From positions 33,170,001 through 33,234,000 of the forward strand of contig NC_086386.1 of the NCBI RefSeq assembly GCF_036588685.1: a DNA stretch of 64,000 bases, written 5' to 3'. A program made the position numbers and the translations under genes. This DNA comes from Mytilus trossulus. Taxonomy: Eukaryota. Below the pieces are notes generated by a model. The model was not told the origin of the DNA. It did no database searches and was given only the letters and a program-made list of their open reading frames with translations. How positions within the stretch are numbered: position 1 is the stretch's first letter; every line of letters begins with the position of its first letter. Of this stretch, positions 10,013 to 58,624 are shown in pieces.

Positions 10013-10087
10013 TGTTCATTCATGTGTACTCTTTAAATATTTCTTTTTATTCAATTGTAAGATATTATTACCCAACACGGTATCATA
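10013..10087 (-). promoter_or_regulatory. Conserved non-coding block upstream of GPCR1, identical to 22622-22696 upstream of GPCR2
   Basis: 75/75 identity by eye, within wider homology of about 9810-10175 to 22420-22790. Regulatory function is inferred only. Confidence 0.5.
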
Positions 10088-19709: not shown

Positions 19710-19827
19710 TTAATTAATGTCAAGCTCAATCCCATTAATTCTGACATCTGTTGATTCATCGTTACTGAAATATTGACTAGTTGTTGAAAAAGTTGCTCTT
19801 CGTGAAAAAGAGGTCTGACTGTTTGAT
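19710..19827 (-). CDS. GPCR2 exon 2: C-tail shortened by a premature TAA
   Basis: Acceptor atttcag at 19828, phase 2, reading SNSQTSFSRRATFSTTSQYFSNDESTDVRINGIELDIN*. It aligns with the GPCR1 tail (FSTASHYLSSDES...IETDIN). The joined protein is 387 aa. Confidence 0.72.
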
Positions 19828-20708: not shown

Positions 20709-21031
20709 TGTGTTAAAAACTAGTTTAACACTGTTTCATTTTCGTGTGTAAGTCCCAAGTCTGATATTAAAATGCTTCCATCTGTATGCAATGCCAAAAT
20801 TCTGTGTACGCAATGAATATTGGGGTTCATAGTAGATCGTCCAATGTCTGTGCGTTTTTTTTTTATTTGGGACGCGAAACGCCGTCTAATTGATCTACTA
20901 ACGAGTTCCATTTATTCATTTTGTAGGGTTCACGAAAAGGTGTAAACATTAAGTTTTCAAAATGAGTCCATTGTTTTAAAAGTACATATATTTTGTGCAA
21001 TTTTTGAATTACACATTTTGAAGAAACTTAC

Positions 21032-22077
21032 CTATCTTTCTCATTGCAGCATGGCAAAAGTCCTCGGATGCTTGTCCTAATCTCAATATATATGTAAAAG
21101 CCTATAGCATAAAATGAAAACTGGAATAGATATAAAACTGCTTTCACGAGATCTAGATTTGCCTGCATTTGTACCGGTTTATTATCAGGTAAATATGAGT
21201 CTATAACGAATAAAACTGAGACTGGTAATGTTGTTATTATAAAATATAGGCTACTGAAAAATAACGTTTGCGTTATTCGTTTACTTTGACGGTTCACGCG
21301 ACGTCTACTTTGTGTGTTGGAAATTGATGTCCTACGAAAAGCAATAGATTTAAGAACTCTTTTCCCAATAAATAAGTTCATAACAAACATAATGAGAAAT
21401 GGTATGACCGAAAGCATGGCTAAGTCAATCAAAACATAAACTTTTTCCTCAAATTCATAATATTCGTCAGACGTGTTGCTGCATACATATTCGTCATCTT
21501 CTAGAATAAGACCATTTGTAAAGAAAAAGTGTAAATCCAACGCTACACAAATCACAAGAGTAACAATATACAAAGCAGCCAACGTTCTGGAAAAAGATTT
21601 TGCTCGGCAACGGAGTGAGAATTTAATTTTGAGAAATCGTATTGTTGTTATGCACACAAGAGTCCACGAAGACATATGCATAGAAAAATAAATGAGAAAT
21701 AATTGTGACACACATCCGGGCGTGCTTATATCCCGAATATCAAGGTCGAAAGTTGCCAATATCCAATACCTTGTCAGACCAACGACGAGAACAACTGTGT
21801 TTACTGTGGCTAAAATGAATAGAAATATATATGTCAAATTCTTGCAAACTTTTATTCTCCACAGGACTAACAATATTCCTGTATTTCCAATCAACCCGAA
21901 CACAAGTAGGATCGGAGAAACAATTATCCATAACCATTTTGCTGCCTCTTTTATAGCTTCTGCTTCGGCATTGGAAAAGTCAGATGAGTTGGTTGACAAG
22001 TTGAATTGGGAAGTTGTTATGTCGTAACTGTTGGAGTAGTTAAATGACAACTGGATTGCATTATCATCATCTTCCAT
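21032..22077 (-). CDS. GPCR2 exon 1: orphan 7TM receptor, close paralog of GPCR1
   Basis: Long stretches are identical to GPCR1 (AEAEAIKEAAKWLWIIVSPILLVFGLIGNTGILLVLW). Donor AG|GTAAGT at 21031. Confidence 0.93.
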
Positions 22078-23479
22078 ACAAATTTCAATCGTGAAAGTTA
22101 TCTTTTAAACGTATATTGTGTTACGTAAAACGTTGTGTTGCTTCTTATCCTATTACATTTCAAAATTTTATGTCTGAAATCACGATTTGATGAACATTAA
22201 TTCCTGAAATTTTCTATGTCAATGTTTTCCAGCCATGTTGTACGAATACATAATTTAATAACAATATTTTCCTTGTCTAATTTAAATCCATACTCGAAGA
22301 TATCACTTTTTATCTCCAAACATGTACACGTTCCATGTTTTTTTTACTCACCTGCAACGAAAGACAATTCCTCGCATGACTTAAGTCTTATGACAGAAAA
22401 GTAAGAATATAATACGTCTGTGTTAACTTCCAATTAATCTTCCAAAATATACTCCTTTTCACACATTCAAACAATGAACATGTCAACAAGTGTCAAAAGT
22501 TGTTAATCTTCGGACAATTTGTAAATAGTGAATAAAATACTCAGCTGATAACTAATAGGTGTCCATTATTTTTTTCCACCATTTTTAACTTGTAATTTTC
22601 TAAACAATTAGTGACATAGTATGTTCATTCATGTGTACTCTTTAAATATTTCTTTTTATTCAATTGTAAGATATTATTACCCAACACGGTATCATATAAT
22701 CAGGGTTGTCTGTTTATACAATGCACAAATACTCAAATTGAATCATTATATTTAAACCTACCGATATTACAAAAGTTTGCTGTGCATGTATGTTATAAAT
22801 ATGCTTTTATAACTATTGTTGAAATTAGAGCAAATAGAATTAATTCGGTTGCTTTATTATACTCTTATATGACGTAAGAATAACACGGAAGGATATTTTT
22901 ACAACAACGCCTTTCAAAAAACCAAACATTATTTACTTTTAAAAAAAAAAATTGACACACTAAAAAGTACCAGGATGGGAAGATAATTAATGATTGAACT
23001 AAACCTCTTACCATTTTTTTTAAAACGAATTGATAACGTAATCGTCACCACGCCATTATACATTTAATAGTAATAATGTTTTATAAAAAAGTTTGTTGTA
23101 GATGAATTGAAAAACAGGAAAAGGGTATTCATTAATCAGTGCTATATGTCTATATGTATTATACATGTTATAAGACGATCTGTATTTCTGTGGTTGTTTG
23201 TTTGTTGATCGATTTAATATACTCTGTACCAAACACCAGCAGACAAATGTAATCATAACATACAAGGCTGAGCTTAGTGCCGATTGTTTGAACTATAGAT
23301 GATTTATCTGTATGCCCTCTTCCGGGTTCATAAAATTACGTCATAGTTTTTAATTAAATGAATGAGTCTAATGTGCATGTGAATGTCCGTTTTAAAGGTA
23401 GAATACCAGCTTAATATATAGTGGTAGTTATTTTGTTGATATGACTTAGTCTATAAATTTACATTGCTATCTTTTGATG

Positions 23480-31600: not shown

Positions 31601-33017
31601 GCCAGAAGTGCATTTTGTCCACACAATACTTTATAGTGACGCCCAGATACAAGTACAAAGTTGAACAGCATCTAGGACCAAAAGTTCTAAAAAGTTGTGC
31701 CAAAAACGGCCAGGGCTTTCTGTAAGTTACCAGAACTATCAAAAATATTCAAACAAACGCAAACTTGTGTAAACAGTATACGCATATAGAATAAATCATA
31801 TCTATGAATATGATATTCAGTTTTTGAGAAAAAATGACCATTCGTCAATTGTTTTTTTTTGTATTGATTTTAGGTTATATTATGATTGTTGTGTTGTCAA
31901 ATTTAAGCATGATAGGTAGACAATTAAGATAAATATTATTATTGATTGACAGTTTTAATTGTCACAATTCGCATCTGGTGCAGTGAAATGTGTACTGTGA
32001 TTGAAATGAAACATTTCAGGCAGATTTCATTTTGTCTTTTCCGGTATTGAAACGGGTCTGACAAAACATAAGTCTATTGTAGGATAAAGGAAAGTTTGGT
32101 GGAAGCCAAGGCTCCGTTTCAAAGACCGTACTATGACCTATAATGGTTTACTTTTAGATGTTTTGACAAGGTAGAACAGTTCATTGGACCCACGCCTATG
32201 CTTCTTATATCTATACACACTTTGTCAAACGAGAGGATATTTTGTAAAATGCAATGCCGAAGCACTAAATAAATATTTGAAAAACAAACATATGAAGATA
32301 GCTCTATATAATTATCTGCGTAAATACTATAAGATGATGTATTGTACTTGAAACATAACAACGAAACAAATAAGAAGGCATTAAATGAATTAGAAATAAA
32401 ATTAGAATTAGAAATTAGAAACCGATTACGGATATTTACTTGGGCTACAATTTAAAGTGGGGAGGCCAAGTTCAAATACAAATTAGAAGAGCACTTTACG
32501 ACAAATATTACAAACCTATTTGTCCAAGTGGGAGAATGACATCGTAGCCTGGCCATGGGAAAGGGACAAGCCTTAACTTTTTTATTAGCATATGATCTGA
32601 AATTTTATAGATTCTATTAATTTTATAGACAAAACATTACTGATTTCTGTTTAGTCATTTGACTCGTAATGTTTGAAACAAATAGAAGCAAATTATGCTC
32701 TTTAGTGAATTTTTATGACAGTTCTTTTGTTCAATTAAAAAAAAGTAGGCATCTCGTTAAGAATAATCGTCAAAACTACAAACGATTCATATTGACTCAT
32801 ATAATTGCATCTTTCTAATGGTTAGAATATAGAATAGGCCACTCATTAATAAAAAAAATGTAAACTGATACTTGAAACACAGCTGTTTACCAAGTAATAA
32901 AATTAAATTCATCATGAAAATAATGAATGATAATCAATTTCAGATTTTTTTACAAAAGATTATAAATTCATAATATTTTTTGGGGTTATACATATACATG
33001 TCTGAGTGTAAGTAATT

Positions 33018-34034
33018 ATGAATACATGTATATCAGACAATTTAATTTATGATAATACTAGCATTTACGCAAATGGTTTTTTGCTAGATCAAATATCATC
33101 ATGGCTATGGATAATCTGTTCACCAGTAATTTTTCTTCTAGGATTATTTGGAAACAGTTTGACAATTTATATATTAATTTGTATGGAGTTTTGGACGAAT
33201 GCAACATTCTCTTTTCTTTTGATTCTATCACTTTCCGATACCACAGTACTTTGCGTTGGACTAATACGGAAGTGGATCCTAGAATTGTTTGAAACTGACG
33301 TCAGAGCACTAAGTAATATCGGATGTAAGATTAATTTGTTTTTGGTCTACTTTTCGATGCACTTATCTTCCTGGACTTTAGTTTGTGTAACAGCCGAACG
33401 TTTTGTAAAAGTTCGATTTCCGTTACAGTTTGTATCGACGAGTATATCATTGAAAATTGTTTTTTGTTATATCTTCATAATTGTTATGTGTATTTGCGCT
33501 GATTGTCACTTTTTCTGGACTAATGACTTGATTATTACTGAAAACGGAACAGCATTATGTAATAGTACATCCGATAAATATTTTATTTTCGAGGAAAAAT
33601 ATTATACCTTTATAGATTTAGCCTTGCTCTCTTTAATACCATTTATAGTTATGCTAACAATGAATATTTCGATGATGAAAACTTTACAGAAATCAGCTAG
33701 ATTTCGTGCGAAGTCGATATCTTTTTGTAGAAGTAGATACAATAACAACGAAAATAACCATATTCTTACAAAAATGCTGATCGTTACGAATGTTTACTTT
33801 CTGTGTTCAACATTACCGATTTCGATTATTTTTGTGGTTGATTCATATGTTCATAATATTTCGTCGGATTATAGCCATTCACAGCTAAATCTAGCGACTA
33901 CCGTTTTATATTTATTCCAATACTCTAACTATACAATAAATTTCTACATATATATAACAATAAACAAACACTTTCGTCGTTGGCTGCCGAAGAGTATTAT
34001 CTCTAAACCATGTATTCCAAGCAGGTATTTATGA
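33018..34034 (+). CDS. GPCR3: orphan 7TM receptor (possible phase-2 donor at 34025; no tail exon identified)
   Basis: 338-aa ORF with GLFGN, LSLSDT, GCK, TAERF, IPF, STLP and NYTINFYIY. Homologous to the other five receptors. Confidence 0.92.
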   Translation: MNTCISDNLIYDNTSIYANGFLLDQISSWLWIICSPVIFLLGLFGNSLTIYILICMEFWTNATFSFLLILSLSDTTVLCVGLIRKWILELFETDVRALSNIGCKINLFLVYFSMHLSSWTLVCVTAERFVKVRFPLQFVSTSISLKIVFCYIFIIVMCICADCHFFWTNDLIITENGTALCNSTSDKYFIFEEKYYTFIDLALLSLIPFIVMLTMNISMMKTLQKSARFRAKSISFCRSRYNNNENNHILTKMLIVTNVYFLCSTLPISIIFVVDSYVHNISSDYSHSQLNLATTVLYLFQYSNYTINFYIYITINKHFRRWLPKSIISKPCIPSRYL

Positions 34035-34714: not shown

Positions 34715-36585
34715 CAAAAAGTAAAATCACAAAAATACTGAACTTAGAGGAAAATCAATTCGGAAAATCCATAATCACATGGCATAATCAAATAACAGAA
34801 CGCATCAAAAACGAATGGACAAGAACTGTCATACTCCTGACTTGGTACAGGCATTTTCAAATGTAGACAATGGTGGATTAAACCTGGTTCTATAGCGCTA
34901 ACCCTCTCACTTTAATGACAGTCTCATCAAATTTCGTTATATTTACATTGATGCGGCAAAACAACCGACACAATAAATAAAATAGTCAAAATATGGGTAC
35001 ATTGTACATCAGTCATCATCGTATAACAATTTTAAAAGGAACAATTTAACAGAACACAAAAACATCTACTTTCAACGAACACATTGATTGATTTGAGTGT
35101 CTGACGTCCGAAATATTTGTATACGTCACATAAATTTGTCGTTCAATGTGCATACAAACAATTTTAAAATTCACATAGGCAATGTTAGCATACAGGGTTA
35201 AAAAGTCAAAAGTATGTAAGAGCAAGTTTCAGAAATAGACCGAGATTTAAACTGGTCCAAAAGTTATATATAGAATTTATAAGAATCCAAAAATAGTTAA
35301 TTCCACTACGCGATTGAATGATTTTGTCGTTTGTGGTTCAACGTATATAGTAATGCATAATAGAAATATTTCATAATGGCATATAATAGAACAATATCAT
35401 ACTGAAGGGATCTTTTAAAGTACAGACACTCGTTATAAGAACAAAAGAAATACAAAAAGTCGCATAGACAAAATAAACCACCAACAAATGAAAGCCAATA
35501 CAAACACATTGACGAGATGTATAAGTACCGATCCACGTCAAATGGATATCACATAAAACCATTCAACAGTAAAAGTAATATTAATAATAGAACATAGACA
35601 AATGAAAGAACAATAAAACACGTTGTTAAGATGATAAACAACATCAGTACGCAGAATCTTAACATCAAGACCATCGTGTATTATTTGAGAAGTTGATATG
35701 AAATATTTATCAACAAGGTCTTGGACCTTTCGATGAACTTTTTTAGAAAAAGGACGAGACGTTCTTTGACATACCCCTGGTTCATCAACTTTCTACCCAG
35801 ACACTGATGACGTTTTACAATGTATGAGTAGGAGCTGCAAGCTCTTGAATATCGAATAAGTTGATAAATTTTTTTCCCATATGCAGATGAAGTCGGTATA
35901 TTGCTACTAAGGTTGGGGAAATTTATAATTTCAAAATTAAAATCGTCTCGGTGGTCATATATTTTGGTACTGAGATGACTGTGTAAATCAAATTCGAGAT
36001 ATAAGTCTAAAAATGAGGCAGAGGAAGCCGTGTCTGTTGTTTCTTTAATCTCTAGTTCTGGAGATATATCAATGGAACCCAATCAGAAAAGTTCGAATTG
36101 TTTATGGAAAGAACACCATCAATATATCTGAAAGTGAAATTAAATAAAGTGGCTTCTTTGATCCTCTTGTTTTTTGACAAGTGTCTGGAGGAACTCCGAT
36201 TCATATGAAAATAAGAAGAGTTCGGCACGAAGAGGCTCACAGTTTGTTCCCATAGGAATGCCGACAATTTGTTGGAAAAGTCTACCTCCAAACTCAACAA
36301 ATATGTTGTCGATAAGAAGTTCCAGCATACTACCCACTTATTCTTCTGTGTAGTATGTTTTACCTTTTTGTTTGACACTATTAACGAAATATGCCTTATG
36401 AAATCCCAAAGTAATAAATTTATAGCGTATGCTGCCATTTTTATGTTGAAAGGCCTTGTGGATTATTTCTTTTAGGCGATTTTTCAATTTCACATGGGGA
36501 ATGGTGGTATACAGGGTTGAAAAATCAAAAGTTTTGATGGAACTAATTTCAGAAAAAGACCGAGATTTAAAATTGTCTAGAAGTT
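34715..36585 (-). mobile_element. Penelope-like retroelement, 5'-truncated RT pseudogene plus about 950-bp 3' region; no C-terminal GIY-YIG (Naiad-type layout possible)
   Basis: Frameshifted pieces: KTFDFSTLYTTIPH, QQIVGIPMGTNC, FRYIDG (YIDD mutated), SASFLDL, YDHRDDFNF, SSNIP, QLIRYSRACS. Confidence 0.88.
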
Positions 36586-37020
36586 CTAGCATAAGCTAAA
36601 ATTATTTTAGCATGAACTAAATTCATTGTAGCATAAGCTAAATTCATTGTAGCATAAGCTTCATTCGTTTTAGTATAAGCTAAATTCATTTTAGCATAAG
36701 CTAAATTCATTACGTTTATGCTAAAATAAACTTTAATTTCATATTCATGACCTTGATTCCGCGCCAACATTTATGTATAAGCTAAACAATTCAGCATATG
36801 CTAAATTGATTTTAGCGTATGCAAAAATGAATTCAGCTTATGCTTAAAATGAATTCCGCTGAAGCTAAAATGAATTCCGCTGAAGCTAAAATGAATTAAG
36901 CTTATGCTCAAATCATTTTAGCATATGCTAAAATATAATATAGCATATGCTAAAATATAATATAGCATATGCTAAAATATAATATAGCATATGCTAAAAT
37001 ATAATATAGTATATGCTAAA
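36586..37020. repeat. 21-bp minisatellite array (agcataagctaaattcattgt-like) that switches orientation mid-array and resumes at 38012-38055
   Basis: Forward units at about 36586-36720; reverse-complement units (aaaatgaattcagcttatgct, atgctaaaatataatatagc) at about 36820-37020. Confidence 0.85.
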
Positions 37021-38012
37021 ATTAAGAAATAATTCATGGAAGCCATAGATTTGTTGGAAATTTACACATGGCCTGGGCCGTGATATTCGAATTTTATCCT
37101 GAGCGTTAGCGAGGGATAACATTAACGAATATCACGGCCCAGGCCATGTGTAAATTTACAACAAATCTATGGCTTCCATGAATTATTTCGATTCTAATAG
37201 GACAAATAAGTTATTTTAAATACTGAAGCGAGGGTTGGTATGCCGTGTGTGGAGCTGTTCTTTTTTACTCCTTGTTAGATAAAGCTCAAATATTCTCATA
37301 CATCTTTAATCTGCATTAGTTATTTCGTTAATAACCGCTAGAAAAAATATGTTTTTAATTCTCAAATCCAATATTTCCGATTTTTAATTAACATGTTTTC
37401 TCGTAAGCTACCATCAAATCCAAAATTGACATTTCGTAAAGAAGGAGCTGCCATGTTGACTCGCTGAATCAAAGGCAATAGAATAGAAAACCTCAGAATT
37501 CCATTTTAATACAATATTTTACGAACTTCGTTGGTTACAAAAAAGTTTTTATTTTTGTGATATTGACTAAATATTGTTTTTATACTGCAACTTTAATTAG
37601 TATATTAATATTTTTTTAAATCGTAACATAAATATCAAGCTTATTTGCATCCCTTAATGAACCCCTCATTGTAGAGAAAGTGTTCCATGATGAAATTGAC
37701 ATTGCACAAAATATACAGTGTTACTATATTTAGGAAATAAACAAAACTAGTTGCAATACATTAATTCTTTTTTTATTATGCATCTGAATAAGAATAAAAG
37801 TTCTGTAATGTTTTTTGTTTAATTAACATTAGTAATACAATAAATTTGGCAAAGCGTTTGCAATGTAGTTTCAAATACATGTGGATTTACGTGGGAGGTA
37901 TATTGTAACATCCATTATTATGTATATCTCTGAGTCTGCGCTAAGTATAGATATATCGAGAATTTTCACACAGTGTTGTTCACAAAGCGAAAGAAGCACG
38001 TCATATTAGAAT
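37021..38012. mobile_element. Non-autonomous element with a long terminal palindrome, inserted in the 21-bp array
   Basis: 64-bp arms at 37026-37089 and 37126-37189 with one mismatch. ATTCTAATA at 37191 is mirrored by TATTAGAAT at 38004-38012, after which the array resumes. Confidence 0.75.
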
Positions 38013-39214
38013 ATAATATAGCATATGCTTAAATGATTTAAGTGTATGCTAAATTCGATATTTATGACCCTTATTCCGCGATATACGGAAATGACAAATG
38101 TCAAACAATCAAAACGAGAAAACTATCGACCTAATTTATGTAAATAAAACGACCGAAAACCAAATATGTATCACGTCAAAAAACGACAACACCTGAACTA
38201 AAGGGCTCCTGACTTGGAACCCAGGTATACTCATTTGCGAGTCATACCCTTTAAAATTTTAGCGCGGGATTATTTTCAAGATTTTGTATTTATCATCGAA
38301 GAAATCTTGAGGTTTCACAATCAACAGTTATAAGTATCAGGCCAAAATTATTTTTTTTTAAATCTTTTATTTTATTTTATGCTCCTTGTAAATGCCAATT
38401 AAGTGAATGGTTTTAAGTTCGAAACATGGACCAATATTAACTTAATAACGGAAAACCCAATAACAGCAATAAAAATATAAATTACCAGGAATTTTTATAA
38501 ATCAAGATTTTACTGATAAGCATTTTTCAATTTGGTTGTGATATAGAAACTACCACCAAGCATCAAGTAAAATCCCATAATTAATGCACGATTCATTAAT
38601 CGTTGGTTATTGAAATCGAAAAATAATTTGTTATCTAATTATGTCCTATATCTTTTGATGACAATGAAAAGTAAACATTTTTCATCGTGTCCGATTATGA
38701 TGATCACACTGGACTGTGTCCCTTGATAGAACTATTCCGAGAACTGTCTATTGAAAGAAATGAAAACTAATATAAAAACTTCCTAATTGCTTTATTGCTA
38801 ATAGAAACTATTAAATGATTCGCCACAGAACAATTACCAATTCAAATGATAGAGAATATGTAATTCTAAGAAGAATTGATATTTATTGCAATTCTGAGAA
38901 TCGAATATCCGTATTCAACACCATTTTTTTTAATAATCTTGAGTCATTGACTTGGTTTCAGTGTGATTCAGATCACTCTATCTTTGTTTTTAATTAGCGA
39001 AGTACAGATTTGAATAGAATGTATTTAGCAAAGCATATTGACTGTAAATTGTAGAACTTTACCGATTATATAATTAACAGCCAAAGTCATAACATAGGTA
39101 TCAACATTTATAGAAATAACATGCTTAAACAAAACTGATTTATGAACATATACTTGAAGAAAACAAGTATTATTTCAACGTAGTATAACAGAAACAAATC
39201 AACCAAAAATACAA

Positions 39215-40197
39215 ATGGTAGACAATTCTTCTACTAATACAACAAGTGAAAAAATGTTTTTAGATGAAATTTCTTCATGGCTGTGGAAAGTACTTGCGCC
39301 TATAATTTTTTCATTTGGAATAATTGGAAACATTCTTATAGTTTTTATTCTTATCAAAATGGAATTCTGGAAGAAACTCACATATACTTTAATACTAGTC
39401 TTAGCTATTTCCGATATGATGGTACTAGTAAGCGGATTATGTCGACGATTCATTTTAGAAATATTTGAGTTTGACATTAGAACAATATCCAATATAGGGT
39501 GCAAATTTTCGTTATTCTTTGTATATTTTTCTATGCATATTTCATCTTGGACTTTAGTCTGCCTTTCAACTGAGAGATTTATCAGAGTAAAATTTCCTTT
39601 AAAATTCCTTGCAGGGAACATATCTACAAAGCTCATTTTATCATACGTCATCATTTGTGTTCTATTTGTTCTACTCGATTCTCATTTTTTCTGGACAAAT
39701 AGTTTAGTTATTTCAGGCAATAGTAAACATTGCAATAACACGTCCGAAAATTATTTCCAGTTTGAAGAACGATACTTTTCAATAGTAGACATGCTAGTAT
39801 TGTCTGTGATTCCATGTGTTTTGATATTTCCAATGAATATATCTTTCTGGATAGTTCTAAGGAAGTCTCGAAAATTTCGCTTAAACAATATGCAACGAAA
39901 CATGAGAAATGTTCGCCTTGGAAAAAACAAATTTGATGAACGAGGTAAAACGTTAACAACAATGATGTTCCTCACCAGTATATATTTTCTAGGAGCAACC
40001 TTGCCGATATCTGTTTTGTTTATTGTGGACTCATACATTCGACAAGACTTACTTACCAGTTTTATGGTCTCTAAGTTGAACTTTGCAACGTCTTTGTTTT
40101 ACTTATTACAGTATACAAACTATTCTGTTAATTTCTTCATCTATATAACTATAAACAGACAATTTAGAAAGTGGCTTCCATTTCATACTTTGCTAAG
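39215..40197 (+). CDS. GPCR4 exon 1: orphan 7TM receptor, closest to GPCR3
   Basis: GIIGN, LAISD, GCK, STERF, ATLP, NYSVNFFIY. Donor AG|GTAAGC at 40198. Confidence 0.92.
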
Positions 40198-41470
40198 GTA
40201 AGCTAAGTTTCTATTTGGTATCTGCATGAAGGGTTTATATATCATCATTCGTGTATGTTAATCAATGAGTTTGAATGTCCTTCTGGTATTTTTTATCCCG
40301 CGTTGATTTTATGTTGTCCTCCGGCTGGTTATATACGAAAAGTATTCTTTGACAGCTATATTTTTTTTCTGATGGGAATATTTTAAAATGATGAAATATA
40401 GGTCAATAAAATCAATAAAATTATCTTAAGTACACTGAATCCTAAAACAAAAGAACAAATCGTAGCCTAAATGTTCATAATAAGCAAAATAAGGAGTTAA
40501 ACACGCTTATAGTTGGATGCATTTTAAAAAAAAATGGTTCCAATGTGTGATCATCATATATACTATGGGTTACGTTGCAGTTAACATGCTTTAAAAGGAC
40601 AAATGGGTCTATAAATGTAAACACTCGAACAAAATGTTGATGGTGATATAACATACTTGCAAAATAATGAGTAATGGAACTTTTTAAACGATTTATTTAG
40701 TTTTATTTTAGACAAAAACACACTTAGTTATGTGCAATGGTTCCTGGCAAGAAAAAAAGCAAATTAACGTCGATGTTACTACAATGTAATTGAAAATATA
40801 CAATATGTAACTTATTCTAAGGTTAGATATAACATGAATGAAAAGTTTTAAAAATACCATTCAAGCAACATACACACAGACAAACACACACATAAACCCC
40901 CTCCCCAAACACATGAAAAACACATAAAGTTAAACATCCGGTAGTCAAAAATCAGTGTTAACAAGGACCATGGTAGATCTGAAATGTACACCAAATATTT
41001 GAATGTAAAAAAACCTAGTGGTATAAGTGTGTCTTTTAAAAAAAATCTGTTTTTTTTGTCATCTTGAAGTTTTTTAAAGACTGATAAAGGTCTGGTGAGT
41101 TGCTTGTCATAAACATATTTGAGTACAATCATAAAAACTTGCATACACTCGAAAAAAAAAAATGGCAATGTGAACACGTTCAGATAACCTGCGCAGAAAT
41201 TTGACACTTATTTTAAATTGAACACGATTCTTGGTTTGAAATATTATATGTTCATAATAGTATTTGAATGTTTCTCAAATAATTATAAAATCAAAACTAT
41301 ATGTTAACTAGGCTGTTTACAGATCACGTTGATTATTCATTGTTTAGGCTTACTTATTTTTTCGATTATTCTACTAAATCATGTAAATGTAGAAAATATA
41401 AGTATTGCAGTTGTCATGATCGGAGCAATGATTAACCACAGTTATCTTAACATCTTTTATTTTTTTTTAG

Positions 41471-41588
41471 AAAGAAGCGACTCAAACACGTAACAGTCAC
41501 CTTAATTTCGCTAACTGATTCATCTGATTCGATGAGGGCAGAACGTATAAATATTAGACACGACATAGTCGATGGAATTAAACCGTGA
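41471..41588 (+). CDS. GPCR4 candidate exon 2 (C-tail)
   Basis: Strong polypyrimidine acceptor ttttttttag at 41470. Phase 2 gives KKRLKHVTVTLISLTDSSDSMRAERINIRHDIVDGIKP*. Confidence 0.5.
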
Positions 41589-44280
41589 GTGAAGGAGAGC
41601 ACAACATATTCGAAGATAAAGATTTGTAAATATATTATCGACATTTATGTATGAATTTGAAATTGACAAGCACATCTTTCGTCATAACCTATATGTAAAT
41701 TTAGATCAAAGTATTATCATTTTACTAAGCACAAAATGTTATTTTGAATCTTTTTAATTGAGATTTATCGTATTTTTACTCTAAAGATATATTTGGATAT
41801 CTTTAATTGATTGTTCATTACATTATTGTCATTCATTTATATTCCTGTTTGTAATGATGATTTTGAATTAAATGTATAGAGTTTCATATATATTTATTAA
41901 AATTAATGTTTGTTTATATATGAACATGCATATATTTTATAGGATGAAGCGAAAAATACATCATATTATTGAATGTTTTTATCTTATGGAAATGAAGAAA
42001 ACAAGATATATATTGTTTTATACCTATCAATTCTAAGTGAAATCATATCAATAAAGGTTTATAAAGTCGTCACATAATAACCTTAGTTATTCATATTTCT
42101 ATTTTCCATTTTGTGAATCAATATTATTCTATTATAATAATCAAACATTAGGTTTTGGTCATTCTTTTCTAAAGACTAAAACAACATTAGTTTAAAAGCA
42201 TACTTTTTAGAACTTGTGATTTCTATCTATAGTATCCATATCCCTTCTTAAAACAAGTTATTTGTATAAAAAATTAATATTGGATTTATGAAACTCTATT
42301 TGACTTCTTTAATATATGTGTTTTATTGTATGGAGAGGAGCGATATCATTCTTTTTATAAATTCTAACAGAAATCTAGAAAGTACCCGTAACACATTATC
42401 ACTCTTTTAATTGTTTGGTTGTAATTATTAAGAAATAGGTTGAAGAACCTCGTTAGATAAAAAGACTAATTACAAATAAATAATTATGTATCGTGCATTA
42501 AAACTTGCAATAAACATCTTTAATATGCCTCCAATCCATCATGAACAAAACTTTAAAAATGAGATAGGAAAACCCAGAACACAACTTGGACCTAGTCCTG
42601 AGAATACGTTGAAATTCGTAATTATTATATTCAATTACACCTTATGAAAGAATCCTGTATTTTGATTGGTTGATAGCTAGTGTATTTTTCACCAATTTGC
42701 TGTTATAAAATGAATATCGTTCATTTTTTAACGCCGCCGGGGTATTTGCCAAAAGGATATAGCTTTTTTACACTCTCTGCAGTAGTATTTGCCAAAACAT
42801 ACTCTATCCAACTATACGCTTGTAACGCCACAATCATCAATGCGTTTTTGAACATTGACATACGGTGTTTTTAAACAGATATAGATAGCATGTTCTTGGA
42901 GGGTATTTGCAAAAAATACATGTCTTAAGAATTAATTTCCCTCGATTGACGGCTCGCGAAATTTAACATTCTCTCCACCTTGAAACCTTCAACAAATAAC
43001 ATTTAATTGCACTCTTAAATAAAAGTGTTTAGCGAAAGATGATTCGAACGGTCCATGAGTGCGTGTGGTCAAAAACTTATGTGTCTGTCCTGATTAACGA
43101 GTACACTTATTGTTGTCCCAGTACAAATACTGTCTCAAGGCAGGTCCACAATGCATTCATTTGATTATAATGATTCGCATACTCTATTCCATTCTAACAT
43201 GCACATCTGAATTAACATTTACAATTAGGTGAGGCGAAACTGTGGAATTCTAACTAATTTATTTGCTAATCTTCTTCATCTTTCGTGTGTAATCTTTACA
43301 AGATTAGGCAAATGCCTCATCATTCTACACAGTTTAATTGATAAGTGAGTGTTACTTTCAACTAATTTATTTAAAGACATGAATGTATTTACTTCTGTAC
43401 ACGCTCAATCAATCTTTGCAAAAGCATCCGCATCAGTAGGTAGATATGTAAATTAATTATTCAAACCATACAATTATCTAATGTTGCAATACAAATAAAA
43501 GCATTATCAGTGGAGGCAATCATATGATTTCTAAATGGGAGTCTAAAAAATATTTGTGAAGTAAAAAAGTTGAATAGACGAAAATTAAATGGATGCGTAT
43601 ATTACGTCACACTAACCTTACATACTGATATCAACATGACATACGTCTCTTGTCATGTATCGTCAGAAAATGAAACACATCACTTTTGTGATGAAATTGC
43701 CAATATAACAAGAAGCACACATTTTGGCATGTGTCAAATTCTAGCTCAGGAAACACTACTAAAAATGGCCATGTGGTCCAATACTCAAATAACAAACAAA
43801 AAAAGATGGCGATAGTATCATTCACAAGTGATTACTGGTGTCTTCTAGAAGTTTAAAAGAAGCTTGATCCATCTGAGAGAAGGAATGATCCCCTTCTTTA
43901 AAAACAAATCGAAAATATGCTTCTTATTTTGGAAGTAGAAATAATTGTTATCCATGTCAACGTGATGAAAAGAATTATATTTCTATGAATATGTTACAGG
44001 GCATTAAGTGATTAATGTGTCTTACAAAGCACCGCACTTGATTGAGTTTGGAAATCAAAAATCACTCTTATATGCATGTACGTCTAAGTTTGTAACGAAA
44101 AAGAAATAGGAATATTTGATGTTTTTTTTTTTTAGTAAAAGATATTTTTTTTTCGTTTCTAGTATCTAATTGATAAAAAAGCCTTTACGCGTAGCTGGTA
44201 TAGTATACCATAAGTTCAACAATCAATTAGTGGACAATCTGAGGATTATCTATAAACGATAGACGACCATCATTTTATTT

Positions 44281-44592
44281 AAGGAATGGTTGAAATATTT
44301 TTTTCTGTCTATGAAGAAATAACATAAAAAATTTGGCGCACACTGAATAACGCGCGTAACGGGTTATTTTACAGTGTGCACATTATTTTTTATGTTATTT
44401 CGAATATTTCGAATTTCGAAAAAAAAATTACAGTCATTTCTTATAATTTAATTCTAAATTCCATTTTAAACCGTAGAAAACCATAAAAAAACGTTGATGA
44501 CGTCACGGTCACATGACTAAATTATGTATATGGCCTCATAACAACATAACGTCAACCAATCAGAAGACGCGTTACATCCAAAATTGAATTAT
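44281..44592. mobile_element. Long-palindrome non-autonomous element
   Basis: Imperfect palindrome at 44281-44442. ATAATTTAATT at 44443 is mirrored by AATTGAATTAT at 44582. TGACGTCA and CCAATCA motifs lie inside. Confidence 0.6.
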
Positions 44593-46443
44593 ATATCAAT
44601 GAAAGATATACCTATTGGTATAAACTTAAACATAAAAATATGAGATGAAATAAATTCAATGAAACACAAAAGATTACCTAATGGAGAAAAAACGCGCGAG
44701 GGGGGGAGGGATTGGTGATAAATGAAAACATCAAAAGAATACTTAAAGGGCATTATCTACAAGATCGTCAGTCATCTCGTTTGTTAGTTAGATGGCACCT
44801 AGTAAAAAAAAAAAGGAAATCTATTTTAGGCTATTTTCAAACATTAGTGTGTTGTTAAAAGTCAAATACAAGAAGTAGAGTAGAATCGGTAAACATACTT
44901 TTGACATCTAATGCACTTTTAATGTGAACTGTTTAGCAACAAATCATGCAAAGTAATTATTAGTACTTCTAGGAACATCATTGCGGAAGTGATTTTGTAA
45001 CATAATTTGTTTACACTACCATATAGATAACCTTAATCAATTAATAAATCCAAACATTAAATCTGTTACAGTATTATCTGATGTTTCAAATTCAATTAAA
45101 TTCCACAATAAAAGTATTACAAAACTTGCCATCAATAACTGGCGTCATAATTGGTCTAGATGAATATAAAAACCTTTATATTCTTGATTACAGTACAGAT
45201 TTATTTAATCATTTCTTATTTGTCTTTTAATCAAATTCTAATAAATATGCCAATAAATTGACAAAGTAGCGACTGTTTCCGCTTTTGGCTTGAAACATCA
45301 GAAAAACAAAATGACATATTTGAAAACTTATCTTAAATAATTCAATTTACAATTCAAAATATGTATGACATAAAAGCCAGATTATTCGATTTCAATGGCT
45401 TTATAAAAAAAGAAACAATGTTCTTTAACTTTTTTGCTTCAGTGATTGATGCACTTTGTCCCTTTATTCTCAAAGTTATATTTCTCAATTTCTTTTCTCT
45501 CTCATTTGAATTGATTATGAATATGTCTTTCTCATGCAAAATTTTGTCCTACTTCAGATTGATTTAAGTTTTATAAACTCTTCAATGTTTATAAGAGGTT
45601 TTTTGGTTTTTAAATATTTCGTTCTTGAGCATCAATTAAGAAATTTAAATGGACAAAATGCATATCTCGTGTAGTTAAATTGATTTATGTTATTACGATA
45701 AATTAGTGACGTAAGCAGGTAGTTTAAATTAAAATAATAACTAGTAAAATGTTTTTGAAAATATTCGATGTTTAATTACACATTAAACATTAAAAATGCA
45801 TTAAACAAACTTTTATGATATCAAATTCCATTAAAGTTATTAAGAGTAAATTTGCCTTTTTGTTAATCTTTTGAACATGTTTTTACATTAATGCATTGTT
45901 TTTCTTTTATCAGCTTAATCAATCACATGCATACAGATGATATGATTTTAAACTTTTACTAACCAAAATTACTAGTTTATTTTTGACCGCATTATCTAAA
46001 AAAAAATGCACTCGGTTAATTTCTGCATTTTCATCTGTACCTTTATTCTCTTGGTAAATATGAATCCCTCGTGTTTTCTTTTATTTTTCGTATGAGTGTA
46101 AATGTCCCACTCATCATTCTTCGTGTTTAAATGTGATTTCCTTCAATACTAAGAGCCTATTATATTAAACACAACGATTCCATCATGGGATTTTATTAAC
46201 ACAACAAAACAACGTATATAGCTGGTTTGTTTTAATAATGAATATCAGGTATGAATATACATATTTTAGGAAGAAATTCATTAAAAATGCAATTTGCACT
46301 AAGGATTTGTATTCAAAATGAATAATAAAATTTGTTCAATTCTAACACACAGTGTTATCAATATAGTTTTCAATATGAATATCAAAACAAAACTTAAAAC
46401 AGTTATATGTTGTTAAGGCTGAATAGGCAAAACAGCAACATTG

Positions 46444-46564
46444 TTAAATAGGATCAAATCCAGAAGACTGCGATATGGCAGGTGGTTTCTGTTCACTCTC
46501 AGTCGGTGATGTAACAAAAGATACTTGTGTTGTACTCACAAATCGACTGCCTCTTCTTGTCGGT
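46444..46564 (-). CDS. Second, intact copy of the GPCR5 tail exon (alternative last exon or orphan)
   Basis: Same acceptor (ttttactttccag) and the same 121-nt length, reading PTRRGSRFVSTTQVSFVTSPTESEQKPPAISQSSGFDPI*. It lies within a duplicated block, about 46093-46780 versus 49540-50225. Confidence 0.5.
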
Positions 46565-48207
46565 CTGGAAAGTAAAATGGAAATGTTAAATCCTCCAGAA
46601 GAAGTCAGAAATTAATAAACGCATTTCATTCCGAGATAATTGAGCATTTGAAGCATAGTTACTTTCGCAATTGAATTGTTTCATACTTTTTATTGGAGAG
46701 GGGGGGGCTTAATAGCCAACCATACGAAATGGGGGTTTCTCATTGTAAAAGCCACACGATTGCCTTTAATTTCTTACATCCTCTTTATTGCAACAGCAGA
46801 CAAGGACCGCGTGAAACAAATCAATTATTAGAGAAGTGCACGAGGAGTGTGTGTCTGTAACATGAAAAAAATTACGAAACATAGAGAAACGTCACAGGAA
46901 AAAATCTAGAAATTGTATAAAATTCAAGATTACTTTCTAATTATGTTATTTGATGTATTAACAACATTACTATTATAGAATTGTGTTAGTAATAGGGAAA
47001 TAATTCCTTCAAATCAATATCCGATCAGAATTGCAAGTAAAACTTCGTAACTTAAAATATGAACAGTGGATAGACAAGTACCGATCCACGTCTTATAACA
47101 ATGAAAACACACACTCTCAAAAAGTTTAACAAGAATAAAATTGCGCCCTCTATTGGCCTATACTTATCAAACCTAATGTAGCAATCGAAGATATGTCGTA
47201 GATTTGTGGAATATAACGAATGACATTATTCGGGTTATAAAACAGTCATATTCTGGATAATCATTTAACCAGGAGTGAAGACGTCATTTCTAAAATCCAA
47301 GATGGCCGCCATGATTGGATGATTATTTTTCGCGGCTACCCCCTATTATGATTACATACACCTAAAGGCATGTTCTTACAAAGTGTCATGCTTGTATCAC
47401 CATTTGCATGATTTGTGTGGTAAGCTGCTTAACTAATATTTACATCTAAAAAAAAATGCACTCGGTTAATTTCTGCATTTTCATCTGTACCTTTATTCTC
47501 TTGGTAAGTATGAATCCTTCGTGTTTTCCTTTATTTATTTCATTTCATTTCTATTTTTTTTTCAAAGTTATAGCATTTAGTATGGTTTTTTGTGAATACC
47601 AGTTCAATTGTAATCTTATTTTATTCTTTATCATTTCGTATGTAAGGTCCGTGTGCATAAGGCACCTTATTTGTTTAAAAAATTATGAAAAAAAAAGGAT
47701 TTTATAAGATTTTGAAATATGGCTTTTTATACTTAATGAAGTATTATTATAAAAAGTAATATAGGGGTTAGTGGGCATTTGTTTAAAATTGCAATACATG
47801 GATAGAACAAGAGGACTCTGAAAATATATCAGAAATTGAAAACATAGAGGAGCAAACATCCTTGATGTAAAAGTGCTTGACTAGGGCTGTTTCGTTTTGT
47901 ATTCATCCATTTTTAACATAATTTACAAAAATGCGGATATTTCTTCCTCTTTTCAAAATCGGGTGTTGTTTTATAATGTTCCAATTTTTAACTAAATTTT
48001 AAAGAAATGTTTACTATAAACCTATATTCAGATAGCAAAACTGATAGTAAGAAAAAAAATGATTAATTTTAGGTGTAGATATATAGTACTGACGTATCAA
48101 TTGTCCGAAGACTAATATTTTGTCTAACCAAATTGGTTAACAGAGAGACACCAAATGATAAATAAAAGTTTTTTTATTTGATACACTTCTATTTGAATAT
48201 TATTATT

Positions 48208-48745
48208 TACATAGTGTGTAAGTGATCTAAAAGTGATCTAAAACGATATATACGAGGTCAGTATATTCCATATGGGTTGAGAGCAAAGTTTAAACCCAAT
48301 AGGGGATTTACTGACCCCGTATATATCGTTTTAGGTCACTAAAACACTTTGTAACGTATTTATCTTACCGACAATCTTTTTTTGTCGAAATTAGAGAAGA
48401 ATTGTCTCATTTACAATCATACCACATCTTCTTATTTTATTTTAAAGTGTGTAAGTTTTCAATTTTAATAACCAACTTTCACTGGTCTGCACACAAAACT
48501 AATGTCAAACAATAACAACTTAATATCAACAACCTTGAAAAACCAATATTAAACAGAACTTTCAGTACATTTGAATAATCAAATAATGCCAAAGTCGTAG
48601 CTCCACTACAAATAAAGGCAAATAAATAAATTATTTTTCGAAAAAAGCCCCGTCTCCCTACTAACCCAATATGGCATATACACGGTCTCCTGGTAGACGC
48701 TTTTAACCAATCATATTCCTAGACATGTATAGGAGGTAAGATAAA
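48208..48745. mobile_element. Long-palindrome non-autonomous element
   Basis: Imperfect palindrome at 48208-48353. TTTATCTTACC at 48359 is mirrored by GGTAAGATAAA at 48735. CCAATCA lies near 48707. Confidence 0.62.
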
Positions 48746-49898
48746 AAAAAAAAATAACCCATACAGATTGTTGATCTGTGGAGTTAAGCCCTTTTCAATT
48801 GATTTTTATGGTTTGCCATTATGTTTTACTGTAACGTGATTAAGGATATGTTTGGCGCCAGCAAACACAGTTAACCCACTGTATACTTTGTGTTCCTGTC
48901 CAATTTGGGAGCTCGAAGTTCAAATGTTGTCATTTGTTCATGTTTGTCATATTTTGTTTTCGTTTTTTTGTTTTGCATGAATTAAGCTGATAAATTTCTC
49001 AATTGAATTGTATCATATTTTTCAAGGCGGGACATAACTATCTGACTTAACAGTATGATTTTACTTCGAATGCCGTAATCTGTTCATTATTACTTATATT
49101 TGCAACAAATGAACGTTGGTGGAAGTTGTCCTTTTATGCAATCATGTCACATCTCAAGATTTTTATACTGACAAATACATGTTTAGTTCCGTAGATTTCG
49201 AGGCCATATCAACTGTTATCTCTTTGTTTAAAGGTTTATTATCATTAAATGATAGTTTCACTACTATATTATATGACTCTACTAGTGTCAAAATTATAGT
49301 CTGAAAACCGTCCTGTCTATGCAGTTTATTTTGAGAGGCCTGTTTGACAAAGAAATGTTCAATAATGGATATCACATGTGTAGCAGGATCTTCTCACACT
49401 TCTAGAGCACTTAAGATTCTCCCAAAATTTTGTGGTGTTCTTGTTCAATCTTAAGTCTAGTGTGTTGTGTGTTGTGTTTTGTGTCTTATTGTTTTTTTTG
49501 TACGTTTAGTCATGACGTTGTCAGTATATTTTAGACTAATGAGTGAAAATGTCCCACTGATATATGTCACCATTCTTCGTGTATATAACTGATTTCCTTC
49601 AATACTTAGAGCATATAATATAAAACACAACTATTTCATCATGGTATTTTATTAACACAACAAAGCAACATATATAGCTGGTTTGTTTTAATAATGAATA
49701 TAAGGTATGAATATACATGTTTTAGGAAGAAATTCATTAAAAATGCAATTTGCACTAAGGATTTGTATTCAACATGAATAATAAATTTTTTTCAATTATA
49801 ACACACAGTGTTATCATATAGTTTTCAATATGAATATCAAAACAAAACTTAAAACAGTTATATGTTGTTAAGGCTGAATAAGCAAAACAGCAATATTG

Positions 49899-50019
49899 TT
49901 AAATAGGATCAAATCCAGAAGACTGAGATACTGCAGGTAGTTTCTGTTCGCTTTCAGTCGGTGATGTAACAAAAGAGATTTGTGTTGTACTCACGAATCG
50001 ACTGCCTCTTCTTGTCGGT
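49899..50019 (-). CDS. GPCR5 exon 2 (proximal C-tail exon)
   Basis: Acceptor ttttactttccag at 50020, phase 2, reading PTRRGSRFVSTTQISFVTSPTESEQKLPAVSQSSGFDPI*. The joined protein is 388 aa. Confidence 0.75.
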
Positions 50020-50906
50020 CTGGAAAGTAAAATAAAAATGCTAAATGATTAGGAACGGATAAACGCAAGTCAGTCCGAAATAATTGAGCAATACAATCAT
50101 ATTTTTTTTTGCAATTGGATTGTTTCATATTTTTTACGGCGAGGCCTTTTATAGCTAACAAAACGGTGTGGATTTTTCTCATTATTGAAGGCCGTACCTT
50201 GGCTTCAAGTGCTTACATACAATTTATTTAAACTTTTGTGGGAGTAGTTTCTTTTGCCAATATACCTTATCTCCTTATTTTTATATAATGTTTTTTTCAT
50301 TTTTTTGCCTGTGATTACTTTGTGACTTTTGCGGTTTTTTTCCTTTAGATCTTGGCATAAGCGTATTTATAGCTGACGAGAACAGTGTATTTTCAGTGTA
50401 TGCTGCATTAAGTTATTGATTAAAAAAGAAAACTGATGCCCATGTATATTTTGTTGTCTCATTGATTTAGACTGAAATGGTCGGAGGATGAAACACGGTA
50501 AATCCTGACCCTTATGATGTTGTTATCCGGGGGTCAAATATGTTGAAATAATTATGTTTTGGTTTTATTGTTTTCGATTACTGACTTTTTAAGGATTTTC
50601 TTATGCATTCTTTTATTTCTAATTGCATCTGCTACAGCGGAGTTAAATCAGAAAGTCACCACAATACCAATGTTTCTTCTATAAAATTTGAGTATGTGTT
50701 TTGTATTTATTGAATGCCAGGCATTTTGAAAAAATCATAAAAAACAAAAGCACATTAATTTATAAGAATAATTTGTTCCCAAACTTTATTTAATAATCAA
50801 ATTAAAAAATCAATCAGCGAAGAGAGGTATTAATGATAATTGTATAATATTTATAGTGATGGAAAACGTTTTTTGCTATTCACTTCGCAATACGTGTATG
50901 ACTTAC

Positions 50907-51952
50907 GTTTTGTTGACGATACAGCAACATATCTCTAGGAATGCTCTTTTAAATGCCGTGTTTGTTATCATATACAGGAAAAAATTTACAACATAATTTG
51001 AGAACATAAATAGATATGTCATCGCCCAGGCGACATCCATCTTAGCAAGTGTCAGATCATCCGCATCAAGAGCTAGATATGACTCTGTTATAAAATATAC
51101 AGACACGGGAACTGTCGCTACTAGAAAATACAGACTCGTAAAGAGAATCATGTTGGTTAACGCTCTGCTGAATTTTCCGAGTTCTTTCCTAGTTGACTCA
51201 TCAGATACCGATATTTTTCTTAATTCTTTAGATTCCATCAAAACCATGTTAATGAAAATGTTCATTATTACCATTGCCACGAAAGGGAAAACTGAAAGTA
51301 CAAATAGATCAACGTAAGTATAGATAAATTCCTCAAACCAGAAATATGCTGTAGTGGTTGCCTCACAAGATAGTTCTCCTTCTAGATCAACCAGTCCTTG
51401 GGTTTCAAACCAGAAGACATTCAGACCAGTCAACAGAAATAATATACATATTATTAAAAAAATAGTCTTCTTTATTGAAACGATCGTATGGTATCGAAAT
51501 GGGAATCGTGTTTTCAGAAATCTTTCAAACGTAATACAAACCAGTATCATTGAAGAAAACTGCATGGACGTGTATATAACGAATACATTAACCTTGCATC
51601 CGATATTTGTTACAGATCTGAGATCGATGTTAAACACTTCCATTGTCCAGTATCTAGTTGGGCCAACACATAGAACTGTGATGTCTGCCAATGCAAGCAC
51701 AAACAGAAGTATATATGTAGGTTTCTTCCAGAATTTTAATTTTGCGAGCACTGCGACAATGGATATGTTGCCAAATAGTCCAATTACTAGTAGTACTGGC
51801 GACAAAATTATCCACAAGTAGCTTGTTGTTTCTTGTAGAAGAATAATGGTGTCGTGATTATTATCAGATGCGTTTTGACGCACTGAATTTGATACATTAT
51901 GATTTCCAAGCTCGGGTGCCTGAGTGGAATTGGAAATAACTGTCGTATTCAT
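50907..51952 (-). CDS. GPCR5 exon 1: orphan 7TM receptor
   Basis: GLFGN, LALAD, GCK, TFERF, FPF, ATVP, NYVVNFFLY, CCC after helix 8. Donor AC|GTAAGT at 50906. Confidence 0.93.
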
Positions 51953-55632: not shown

Positions 55633-56466
55633 GAAAACGGAGTGTGTACATATATTAGATTGGCAAACCATTGATCGTATTTTGAATTCTAAAAGGCATT
55701 ACCACATTTTATTAAATCAATGAATCGTAAATATCTTTCTGATATCAATGCACATTTACTTTATAATTAAAATAGGCCATGCCTGTAAATAGAAAATTAA
55801 ATTGATAATAATCAAATTAAAAATATTGTTAAAGACATTTAAGTCGCTCTCGTCCTGAGCGACATTATTTTGAAAGATAAATGTACTCCATTTACTGATG
55901 TATAGGAAGCCACAATAATTCTGATATCAACCATGTCAGCGAGAACTTCAAAATAAACATATGTGTAAAAGATCGAGCTAATACAAACATTCAAGTTTAT
56001 AAAGCAGAAATAAATATCGACGATATGTACTTTCTAATTAATTTTCCCAGTTTAATGTACAAACGAAACAGTTAGTATCTTAGCAGTTGAATAGTTTTTC
56101 ATAAAATGTCATTGATAGTTATGGAAAAGCTTAACTATTCTGTTTGCACTTCGCAATGCGTTCTACATCGTGATTTAAATACCAACATATGTGTGTAAGA
56201 GGATATTTAAACGACTGAATAAAATGTATTTTAAACACCATTTAAAAGCACATTGAGCGCACTAATTGACATTTTTAATGACAAAAAAGATTCAATTGTG
56301 GAGTAATTAAAACAACAGATGGATTATCGCACACCGGGTGACAATGAGGAAGTGTATTAAGTATCCAGAGAAATAAGATACATTATAGTATAGGTAGAAA
56401 CAACATGTGGATGTCGACATAGTTTAACATTGGGATGTTCTTATTTTTATTCTTAATGTTAACACA

Positions 56467-57545
56467 ATGACAACAAACAACATCATTACATCTGTTAGTC
56501 TGTTTACAAATGAAATATTTGAGAATTCATCCTCTGCAACAGAAACACTCTTAGACAACAGATCTACAGTGGATTTCTCTACTGTTGCTACTATTTCAAA
56601 GTTAGATGATGAAATTTCTAGCATTGACAATGTAACGAACTGGATATGGATAATAGGTTCACCCATAGTGTTCATTCTTGGAATAATTGGAAATAGTGGA
56701 ATAGTACTAGTTTTATATCGAATGAATAGATGGAAAAAGTTGACGTACAAGTTAATTTTGACATTAGCTATATCCGATTCGGTTGTACTGTGTATTGGAC
56801 TTGGACGACAATGGCTTCGATTTGCTTTAGATATAGACATAAGACTGTTTTCAGATTTTGGGTGCAAATTTTCTGTCTTTCTCATATATTTTTCAATGCA
56901 TTTTTCCTCATGGACTTTAGTTTGCGCTACGTTTGAAAGATATCTGAAAACAAGACATCCATTTCGTACATATTGTGTAAATGTTTCGAAAATTTTAAAG
57001 ATAACTTATGTGTTCATTATTGTCCTAACATTGGGACTTGACTTTCCACTTCTTTTAACGAATGAACTTAAGATTAACACAGATAACAGTCGAACTTGTA
57101 ACAATACGTCAATAGAAACCTCAAATTATGAAGAAAAGTATTTTGTTTTTATCGACTTCGCATGGTTATGCTTCATTCCCTTTGTTTTAATGACGTTTAT
57201 GAACTTTTTTGTTGGCAGAACAATAAGAAGATCATTCCGACGTACAGTGAGATACATCCCAGATCCACAAAATCGTGAACGTCATTTGATTGGAAATAAA
57301 AAGTTAACTCGGATGATATTCTGGACTAGTGTATACTTTCTCCTCACAACATTACCTATATCAATACATTTTTGTGTGGACTCATTTCTAAAACCAGGTT
57401 CAACAAAAGAAACATCTGACAAAATTGATCTGTCTGAAGCAATTCTTTATTTATTCCAGTTTACAAATTACTCTGCTAATTTTTATATATACTGCAAATT
57501 TAAAGATGCCTTTAGAGAATACCTTCCTTGTAAAAGAAGATCAAG
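56467..57545 (+). CDS. GPCR6 exon 1: orphan 7TM receptor
   Basis: GIIGN, LAISD, GCK, TFERY, IPF, TTLP, NYSANFYIY. Donor AG|GTATGT at 57546, so the ORF extension to 57672 is probably intronic. Confidence 0.92.
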
Positions 57546-58624
57546 GTATGTCAGTTACTTATTCCATAATAGAACTAATCAACATAAGGAGCCAAATTTC
57601 AAACTAGTCTTTCTCGTGTGTAGTTCTCTCGCAAACGAAATAAATGTTTATTTAACAGTAACTAGACTCTAAAAAAGAAGACTTAATTGATCTACATGTC
57701 CACAAAAGTAAAACAAAATCCACTTCAAATGGAAATTTGAAATGATGTATTCAAACACTTAAAAAAAGGATAAAAAACGTTAAATATTGAATTTGTAATT
57801 CTTACAATGACATGGGTCGATTTAAATAATCACGTATGTATAAATAGCGAAATACATGTACATCACATAATACACGGTTTAAAAATTATTGACCCGGCGA
57901 ACAAGGGAGAGATGACATTGATATTTATTTGTCTGATTCTTTTGTCATAATATGATAAAAATTATATGTCTTTTCTGAACTATTACCAAGGTAAATTTCA
58001 ATACACCCTTTAATGTATTTAGGTCAAATGGTCGATTGTAATAAATGTAAAGAGATATTTTTTAATCATATTGCAGTTGATGGATATCAACTAAAATAAG
58101 ATGAGTATATAATTTCTTTATCGTAATATGCCTAACAATAATTTTTTTAAACTACTTCATAATGTGTCGGAATGAAATCGTAAAATTAAATTAATTAGAA
58201 AAATTGAAACACAATAAACTCTTCAAAGATATCAATTTAGTACGTCAATGTGCGTTTCATGTCCATAAGACTCATTAGCGGTACTCGAATTTAATCAATT
58301 ATGCATGTAGGACAAATCAAATATGATTTTGAGAAGCATTAAAAGTCAAAACAACCTTTACGTATTGATAGCTAAAGCGATATGCCGGTAGTATGAAAAA
58401 TATAAGTGTAACGAATAATTCAACAACAAAAAAAACCAGTCAATTTTCAGAAAAAAAACAACATTTCAATATAAAAAAATATGAAGATATTGTATTATTA
58501 CAAATGAGACACTTTGCCACCAGAGACCAAATTATATGGCACTTTACAACTATAAGTAACCGTACTGCCTTCAACAATGAGCAAAACAAATACCACATAG
58601 TCGGCAATACAAAATTTAGTTCAT

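Follow-up and report, generated by a model that had tools for sequence, protein, structure and literature searches.

A second copy of the last coding exon, apparently present on only some chromosomes, behind a class A receptor gene of the mussel Mytilus trossulus

Results

The receptor gene and its cluster

We analyzed a window of 64,000 nucleotides from the genome of Mytilus trossulus (contig NC_086386.1, positions 33,170,001–33,234,000), and all coordinates below refer to this window. The gene studied here has, on the minus strand, a 7TM coding exon (50907..51952; 1,046 bp, i.e., 348 codons plus 2 nt), which ends in phase 2 at a GT donor at 50906. Its translation matches the Pfam model 7tm_1 over profile positions 1–260 (E 1e-20; 74.7 bits against a cut-off of 30.5). 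Because the match passes the cut-off over all seven helices, the predicted product is a class A (rhodopsin-type) GPCR. A Mytilus edulis protein (P0001) is 97% identical to the 7TM exon, and the nearest named proteins are from Mytilus. The label “mu-type opioid receptor-like” is an automatic name, and solved mu receptors are only distantly similar (E 2e-14). The helix-3 Asp of opioid receptors binds the ligand amine; in the mussel receptor, Ile aligns with this Asp of the mu receptor, so the residue expected of an opioid receptor is lacking.

The gene lies in a tandem cluster of related receptors, with six in the window and 11 on the contig stretch among the top matches listed. The other five rhodopsin-type 7TM exons in the window are located at 8451-9518(-), 21028-22104(-), 33012-34034(+), 39158-40201(+), and 56428-57672(+). 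Each has a candidate GT donor shortly past helix 8, which suggests the same two-exon layout. Further relatives occur farther along the contig, one of them with six stops. The cluster includes a whole-gene duplicate pair (8444-10216 and 21021-22827, 78% identical), and the homologous segments downstream of its members (7191-7476 and 19442-19721) are probably their tail exons; in the first, an open frame includes a 78-bp tandem repeat. When the 1.3-Gb assembly was searched with the 7TM exon, no second copy with more than 46% identity was found among 30 matches (the best 116 of 425 candidates), and the search with the tail region returned two matches. Elsewhere in the window, a BEL/Pao-type retroelement with RVT_1, Peptidase_A17, and integrase domains occupies 11400-17355, its integrase region being assembled as three tandem 1,342-bp copies with 99% identity. 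An array of 21-bp units is found at 36563-36936, adjoined by a 64-bp inverted repeat at 37026-37189.

Two homologous tail exons

The C-terminal tail of the receptor is encoded by a separate exon, of which two copies follow the 7TM exon. The coding part of the proximal copy, A (49899..50019, minus strand), is reached across an intron (50020..50906, minus strand) that contains an old dispersed repeat of about 180 bp at 50105-50286; we infer that A, with a depth of 32 in DNA run X1, is the normal last exon. The coding part of the distal copy, B, lies at 46444..46564 on the same strand, behind an intron remnant (46565..46789, minus strand) that retains a truncated old repeat and an intact-looking acceptor. 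The first-pass annotation had described the copies as sharing acceptor, phase, length, and stop, and this is correct: both are 121 bp long and either completes a protein of 388 aa. Each copy also has its own 3' region on the minus strand, 49539..49898 for A and 46092..46443 for B, with AATAAA at 49653 and 46197, respectively. The duplication of the tail exon is thus confirmed. The duplication spans no more than about 700 bp (49539-50228 and 46092-46789, 84% identical), and the two protein tails are 92% alike. No disabling change is evident in the sequence features of B, which keeps an intact acceptor, frame, stop, and poly(A) signal; the pyrimidine tract has 14 of 17 pyrimidines in both copies. 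Seven AATAAA hexamers, in addition to A's own, precede the intron remnant of B. No 7TM exon lies between the copies, as had been noted earlier, and tblastn and blastn over 40301-50900 detected no 7TM, intron-start, or promoter remnant (best tblastn E 0.36).

The eight codons first listed as different between A and B correspond to nine nucleotides, six silent and three replacement, and every Ser and Thr is unchanged, as listed. Six of the nine differences fall within 28 bp, a clustering that is not significant (P 0.08–0.10). An A-type contig of X1 lacks three A/B differences (46263, 46522, and 46524), and the I/V change is therefore allelic within A rather than fixed between A and B. When this codon is dropped, five silent and two replacement differences remain (5/7 silent, P 0.018). 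The remaining L/P and V/I changes affect no Ser or Thr, no RRxS site, and none of the last four residues.

We compared both tails with those of other Mytilus species. The 90% protein cluster of the receptor has six members, of which two are ORFs of the 7TM exon only and four are named proteins (two from M. edulis, one each from M. coruscus and M. californianus), all of 388 aa with a tail. An orthologous single tail is present in these four (P0001, P0007, P0008, and P0009), with one tail per record and no B-like isoform among them. All four orthologues share with A and B the RRxS site and the last four residues. At the first of the three positions at which A and B differ, B and all four orthologues have Val and A has Ile; at the second, A and all four annotated orthologues have Leu and B has Pro; at the third, A and M. 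edulis have Val, and B and the two more distant species have Ile. Overall, the M. edulis tail differs from A at 6 of 40 positions and from B at 7, compared with 3 between A and B.

Anatomy of the B cassette

Read along the gene strand, the order of elements is 7TM exon, intron, A with its 3' region, segment X, repeat R, element Y, intron remnant, B with its 3' region, repeat R', and flank. Segment X (47537..49538, minus strand) fills the 2 kb between A's 3' region and R, contains old dispersed repeats, and is absent behind B. The direct repeats R (47444..47536, 93 bp) and R' (45994..46086), to which no strand is assigned, are 97% identical. Two copies of R were found in the genome, and there was no further match for that part of the query in the assembly (best 40 of 461 candidates). 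The spacing from R to R' is 1,450 bp, which is the length of the B cassette. On the plus strand, R carries a strong splice-donor-like motif that is altered in R', and R could be a small exon of the opposite strand.

Y (46789..47436, likewise unstranded) is a young copy of a dispersed mobile element, its nearest copy being 96% identical. Its boundary beside R matches that of all three copies fetched. At its other end, two of the three run on where the copy in the window stops, and the old intron repeat is cut at the same point. As both are truncated where they meet, we interpret this point as a deletion-type junction of Y with the intron of B. A further joint that we considered, 46690-50173, was uninformative, with sides of 21-26 letters that lie within a dispersed repeat.

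Divergence between the copies

The split between A and B is old, and their divergence is uneven along the duplicated block, with constraint that tracks the boundaries of the mRNA. In the distal intron, 47 of 181 positions differ (26%), compared with 3 of the last 27 intron bases. In the coding part the count is 9/121, made up of about 6/30 silent (20%) and about 3/87 replacement sites (3%). The UTR differs at 11 of 254 positions up to AATAAA (4%) and at 12 of 97 beyond it. Over 122 columns, the intron remnants have 15 changes specific to A and 18 specific to B, and they share five derived states, against a mean of 0.66 for 190 other pairs. This sharing rules out two independent repeat insertions as the source of the likeness, and the two remnants are, by this sequence comparison, descendants of one insertion.

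Silent divergence resembles that of the intron (P 0.65) and exceeds that of the UTR (P 0.005, or 0.018 with 5/30), which favors purifying selection over plain gene conversion. The excess of silent changes (6/9) has a P value of 0.010-0.026 across five mutation models, although the numbers are small; the mutability of CpG weakens it without abolishing it (P 0.026 at most). Had B evolved neutrally since the split, about 37 changes would be expected in the UTR and at most 11 were seen (P about 8e-8), so neutral decay of B since the split is rejected. Because intron and silent sites have diverged and replacement sites and UTR have changed little, selection probably acted on both copies through most of their history. 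The first-pass annotation had read the silent excess as coding selection on both copies, and our results support this for the past. The excess may record past and not necessarily present selection, since the pattern would be no different if function had been lost recently.

The flanking repeats R and R' differ at 3 of 93 positions, against 47/181 in the intron (P 7e-7). Divergence between the repeats appears to be at an allelic level, against 26% between the introns, which suggests that the copies are far older than their tandem arrangement or else that R was recently exchanged. In run X4, R has the R' letter at two of the three sites that differ between R and R', and together with the low R/R' divergence this points to a recent join or a recent exchange.

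Presence of B in other DNA

We compared the locus with five of nine DNA runs, X1–X4 and X6, of which X2–X4 come from one study and X1 may be the source of the window. In X1, two B-specific pieces (46028-46244 and 46549-46840) have depths of 14.9 and 16 and do not differ from the window. Depths of 21.9-35.8 (median 30.4) were obtained for nine other locus-specific pieces of X1, which cover the 7TM exon, A with its intron, X, and the flanks. This gives a ratio of 0.51 for B as measured by contig depths in one run; three short Y pieces with 6-9 differences were excluded as repeat copies. In X1, A thus appears to be on both chromosomes and B on one. By contig depth in this single run, itself a possible source of the window, B appears to be a hemizygous presence/absence variant.

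B-type pieces were found in all four runs compared at B (X1, X2, X3, and X4), and X2 matches B exactly over 46441-46552; B is therefore not a rare accident. B-type pieces also occur in the organism labelled B, and the named orthologues (n = 4) show one tail each at the protein level. In X3, the acceptor and intron of B adjoin Y, with 7 differences over about 300 bases, and the 3' region of B continues into R' and the flank; X4 carries the X-R and the B-R' junctions. In X2–X4, B's exon and UTR may be less variable than its flanks, although the pieces are short and come from different individuals. The first-pass annotation had considered a complete receptor gene ahead of B in other haplotypes; no 7TM exon was seen there, and in X1 and X3 the intron of B adjoins Y, just as it does here. 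The tandem order is taken from the window: no contig listed for any run covers the R-Y junction, and none crosses R from X to the far flank; 47450-47641 is without cover in X2 and X3 (depth about 6). A contig of X6 (record 27, 46436-46674) shows 22 differences and no gaps and fits the exon and intron of B, not those of A, which hints at a B-like intron in a more distant allele. Among metagenome contigs, an exact-pattern scan gave no match, and a protein-based scan gave one weak locus, L027 (E 1e-5, 35 residues).

Discussion

B as a likely orphaned tail

We consider it somewhat more probable than its opposite, at roughly 55%, that B is a tail orphaned from an old allele or a sister gene and that the mRNA would normally end at A. 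Beyond the observed structure, divergence pattern, and half depth in X1, the steps we propose are as follows. B would once have been a functional tail, either that of an allele diverged long ago or that of a tandem sister gene; of the two, the allele is preferred because the flanking R and R' differ only at the allelic level. A comparatively recent exchange or deletion at Y would then have stranded B downstream of A, lacking its own 7TM exon, and the 1.45-kb cassette with B would, by read depth, be carried by only some chromosomes. Because the acceptor and poly(A) signal of A come first, the mRNA would end there, which would make B redundant. The first-pass annotation had offered a sister gene that lost its 7TM exon as a second possibility beside a switchable tail; the idea of an orphaned tail fits our data better than the switch, preferably with an allele in place of the sister gene. 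The deletion-type junction, the Pro of B against Leu in all four orthologues, and the lack of a B-like isoform among the named records support this account, and the whole-gene duplicate with a downstream homologous exon-like segment in the same cluster counts in its favor. Against it stand the intactness of B, the B-type pieces in 4/4 runs, none of them seen with its own 7TM exon ahead, and the ancient polymorphism or introgression that an allele lineage with 26% intron divergence would need.

Alternative explanations

The strongest alternative, which we nevertheless regard as doubtful, is that B works as an alternative last exon. It would then be a tandem duplicate of long standing, kept by selection and reached by skipping A and its poly(A) site, with chromosomes lacking B arising later through R x R' recombination. 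Two homologous terminal exons stand in the same phase behind one donor, splice and poly(A) signals are intact, constraint tracks the mRNA boundaries, and the silent excess persists without the allelic I/V codon; moreover, C-terminal swaps make up the enriched class among human tandem duplicated exon events (PMC9741552). What keeps this reading in view is the lack of any disabling change in B, together with its frequent occurrence in the runs. Several results speak against it. B is apparently missing from one X1 chromosome, A's poly(A) signal and seven further hexamers lie ahead of B's intron remnant, an old tandem origin leaves the 97% likeness of R and R' unexplained, and a B-like isoform is wanting among the four named orthologues. 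The tails would differ at two positions, and since no phosphorylation site or terminal motif is touched, a signalling switch of the OPRM1 kind is unlikely even if B is used. The apparent lack of B on one X1 chromosome, the difference at two positions, and the Pro peculiar to B leave the original headline of a “switchable tail” weak.

A related possibility, which we hold still more tentatively, is a segregating duplicated last exon, in which the tail of an ancient allele was captured behind the resident tail, so that carriers would have two receptor ends and 3'UTRs and non-carriers one. If this were true, the birth of an alternative exon would be observable between individuals of one population.

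We regard it as improbable that B is a long-standing duplicate without function, kept A-like in its exon and UTR by gene conversion. The near identity of R and R', the polymorphism of some A/B differences among A alleles (the three X1 sites), and the 28-bp concentration of exon differences would suit conversion, but conversion should level silent sites, and these are as diverged as the intron and more so than the UTR; the concentration itself is not significant. That the assembler set two alleles of one animal in tandem, the uncollapsed allele of the first-pass annotation, would agree with the half depth of B in X1 and the unspanned R-Y junction but is very improbable given the 2:1 depth, since an uncollapsed allele would halve A too and the A-side pieces have full depth (25.5-35.8), pieces that run into R from X (26.3) occur together with those that do so from B's UTR (14.9), and the A and B introns differ by 26%, against about 1-4% between other samples and the window at these loci.

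Comparison with known systems

Under the orphaned-tail account, the most likely meaning of the locus is a small example of mussel structural variation reshuffling gene ends. It also warns that an excess of silent changes in a duplicated exon can reflect a function it had in the past. Should B prove to be spliced, comparing carriers with non-carriers would offer a natural test of the uptake of a duplicated last exon, although the protein change is slight.

As in the bivalves, where lineage-specific tandem expansions of class A GPCRs commonly form clusters (PMC11886862), the mussel receptor sits in a tandem cluster. No literature on this locus was found by titles and abstract openings; the supplements of PMC11886862 could list the gene. 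The tail of OPRM1, also a class A GPCR, is on a separate exon, and its alternative tails can shift arrestin recruitment (PMC8534031). The mussel receptor likewise has its tail on its own exon, but the OPRM1 tails differ in phosphorylation sites and tails A and B do not. Among human tandem duplicated exon events, 77 of 236 are C-terminal swaps, and the substitution events are annotated as spliced and mostly ancient (PMC9741552). Like them, the mussel locus has two homologous 3' coding exons behind one gene, so that a C-terminus swap is possible in principle; unlike them, its copies are 92% alike in protein, B appears polymorphic in presence, and splicing to B is hypothetical. In Mytilus galloprovincialis, hemizygous presence/absence variants have been reported, and 36.78% of the assembly has low coverage at half the read depth (PMC7653742). 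The half-depth sequence of B resembles these variants, but the dispensable unit here is one coding exon with its UTR and not a whole gene. Tandem duplicated 3' exons and hemizygous variants in Mytilus are both known classes, and this locus is a further case.
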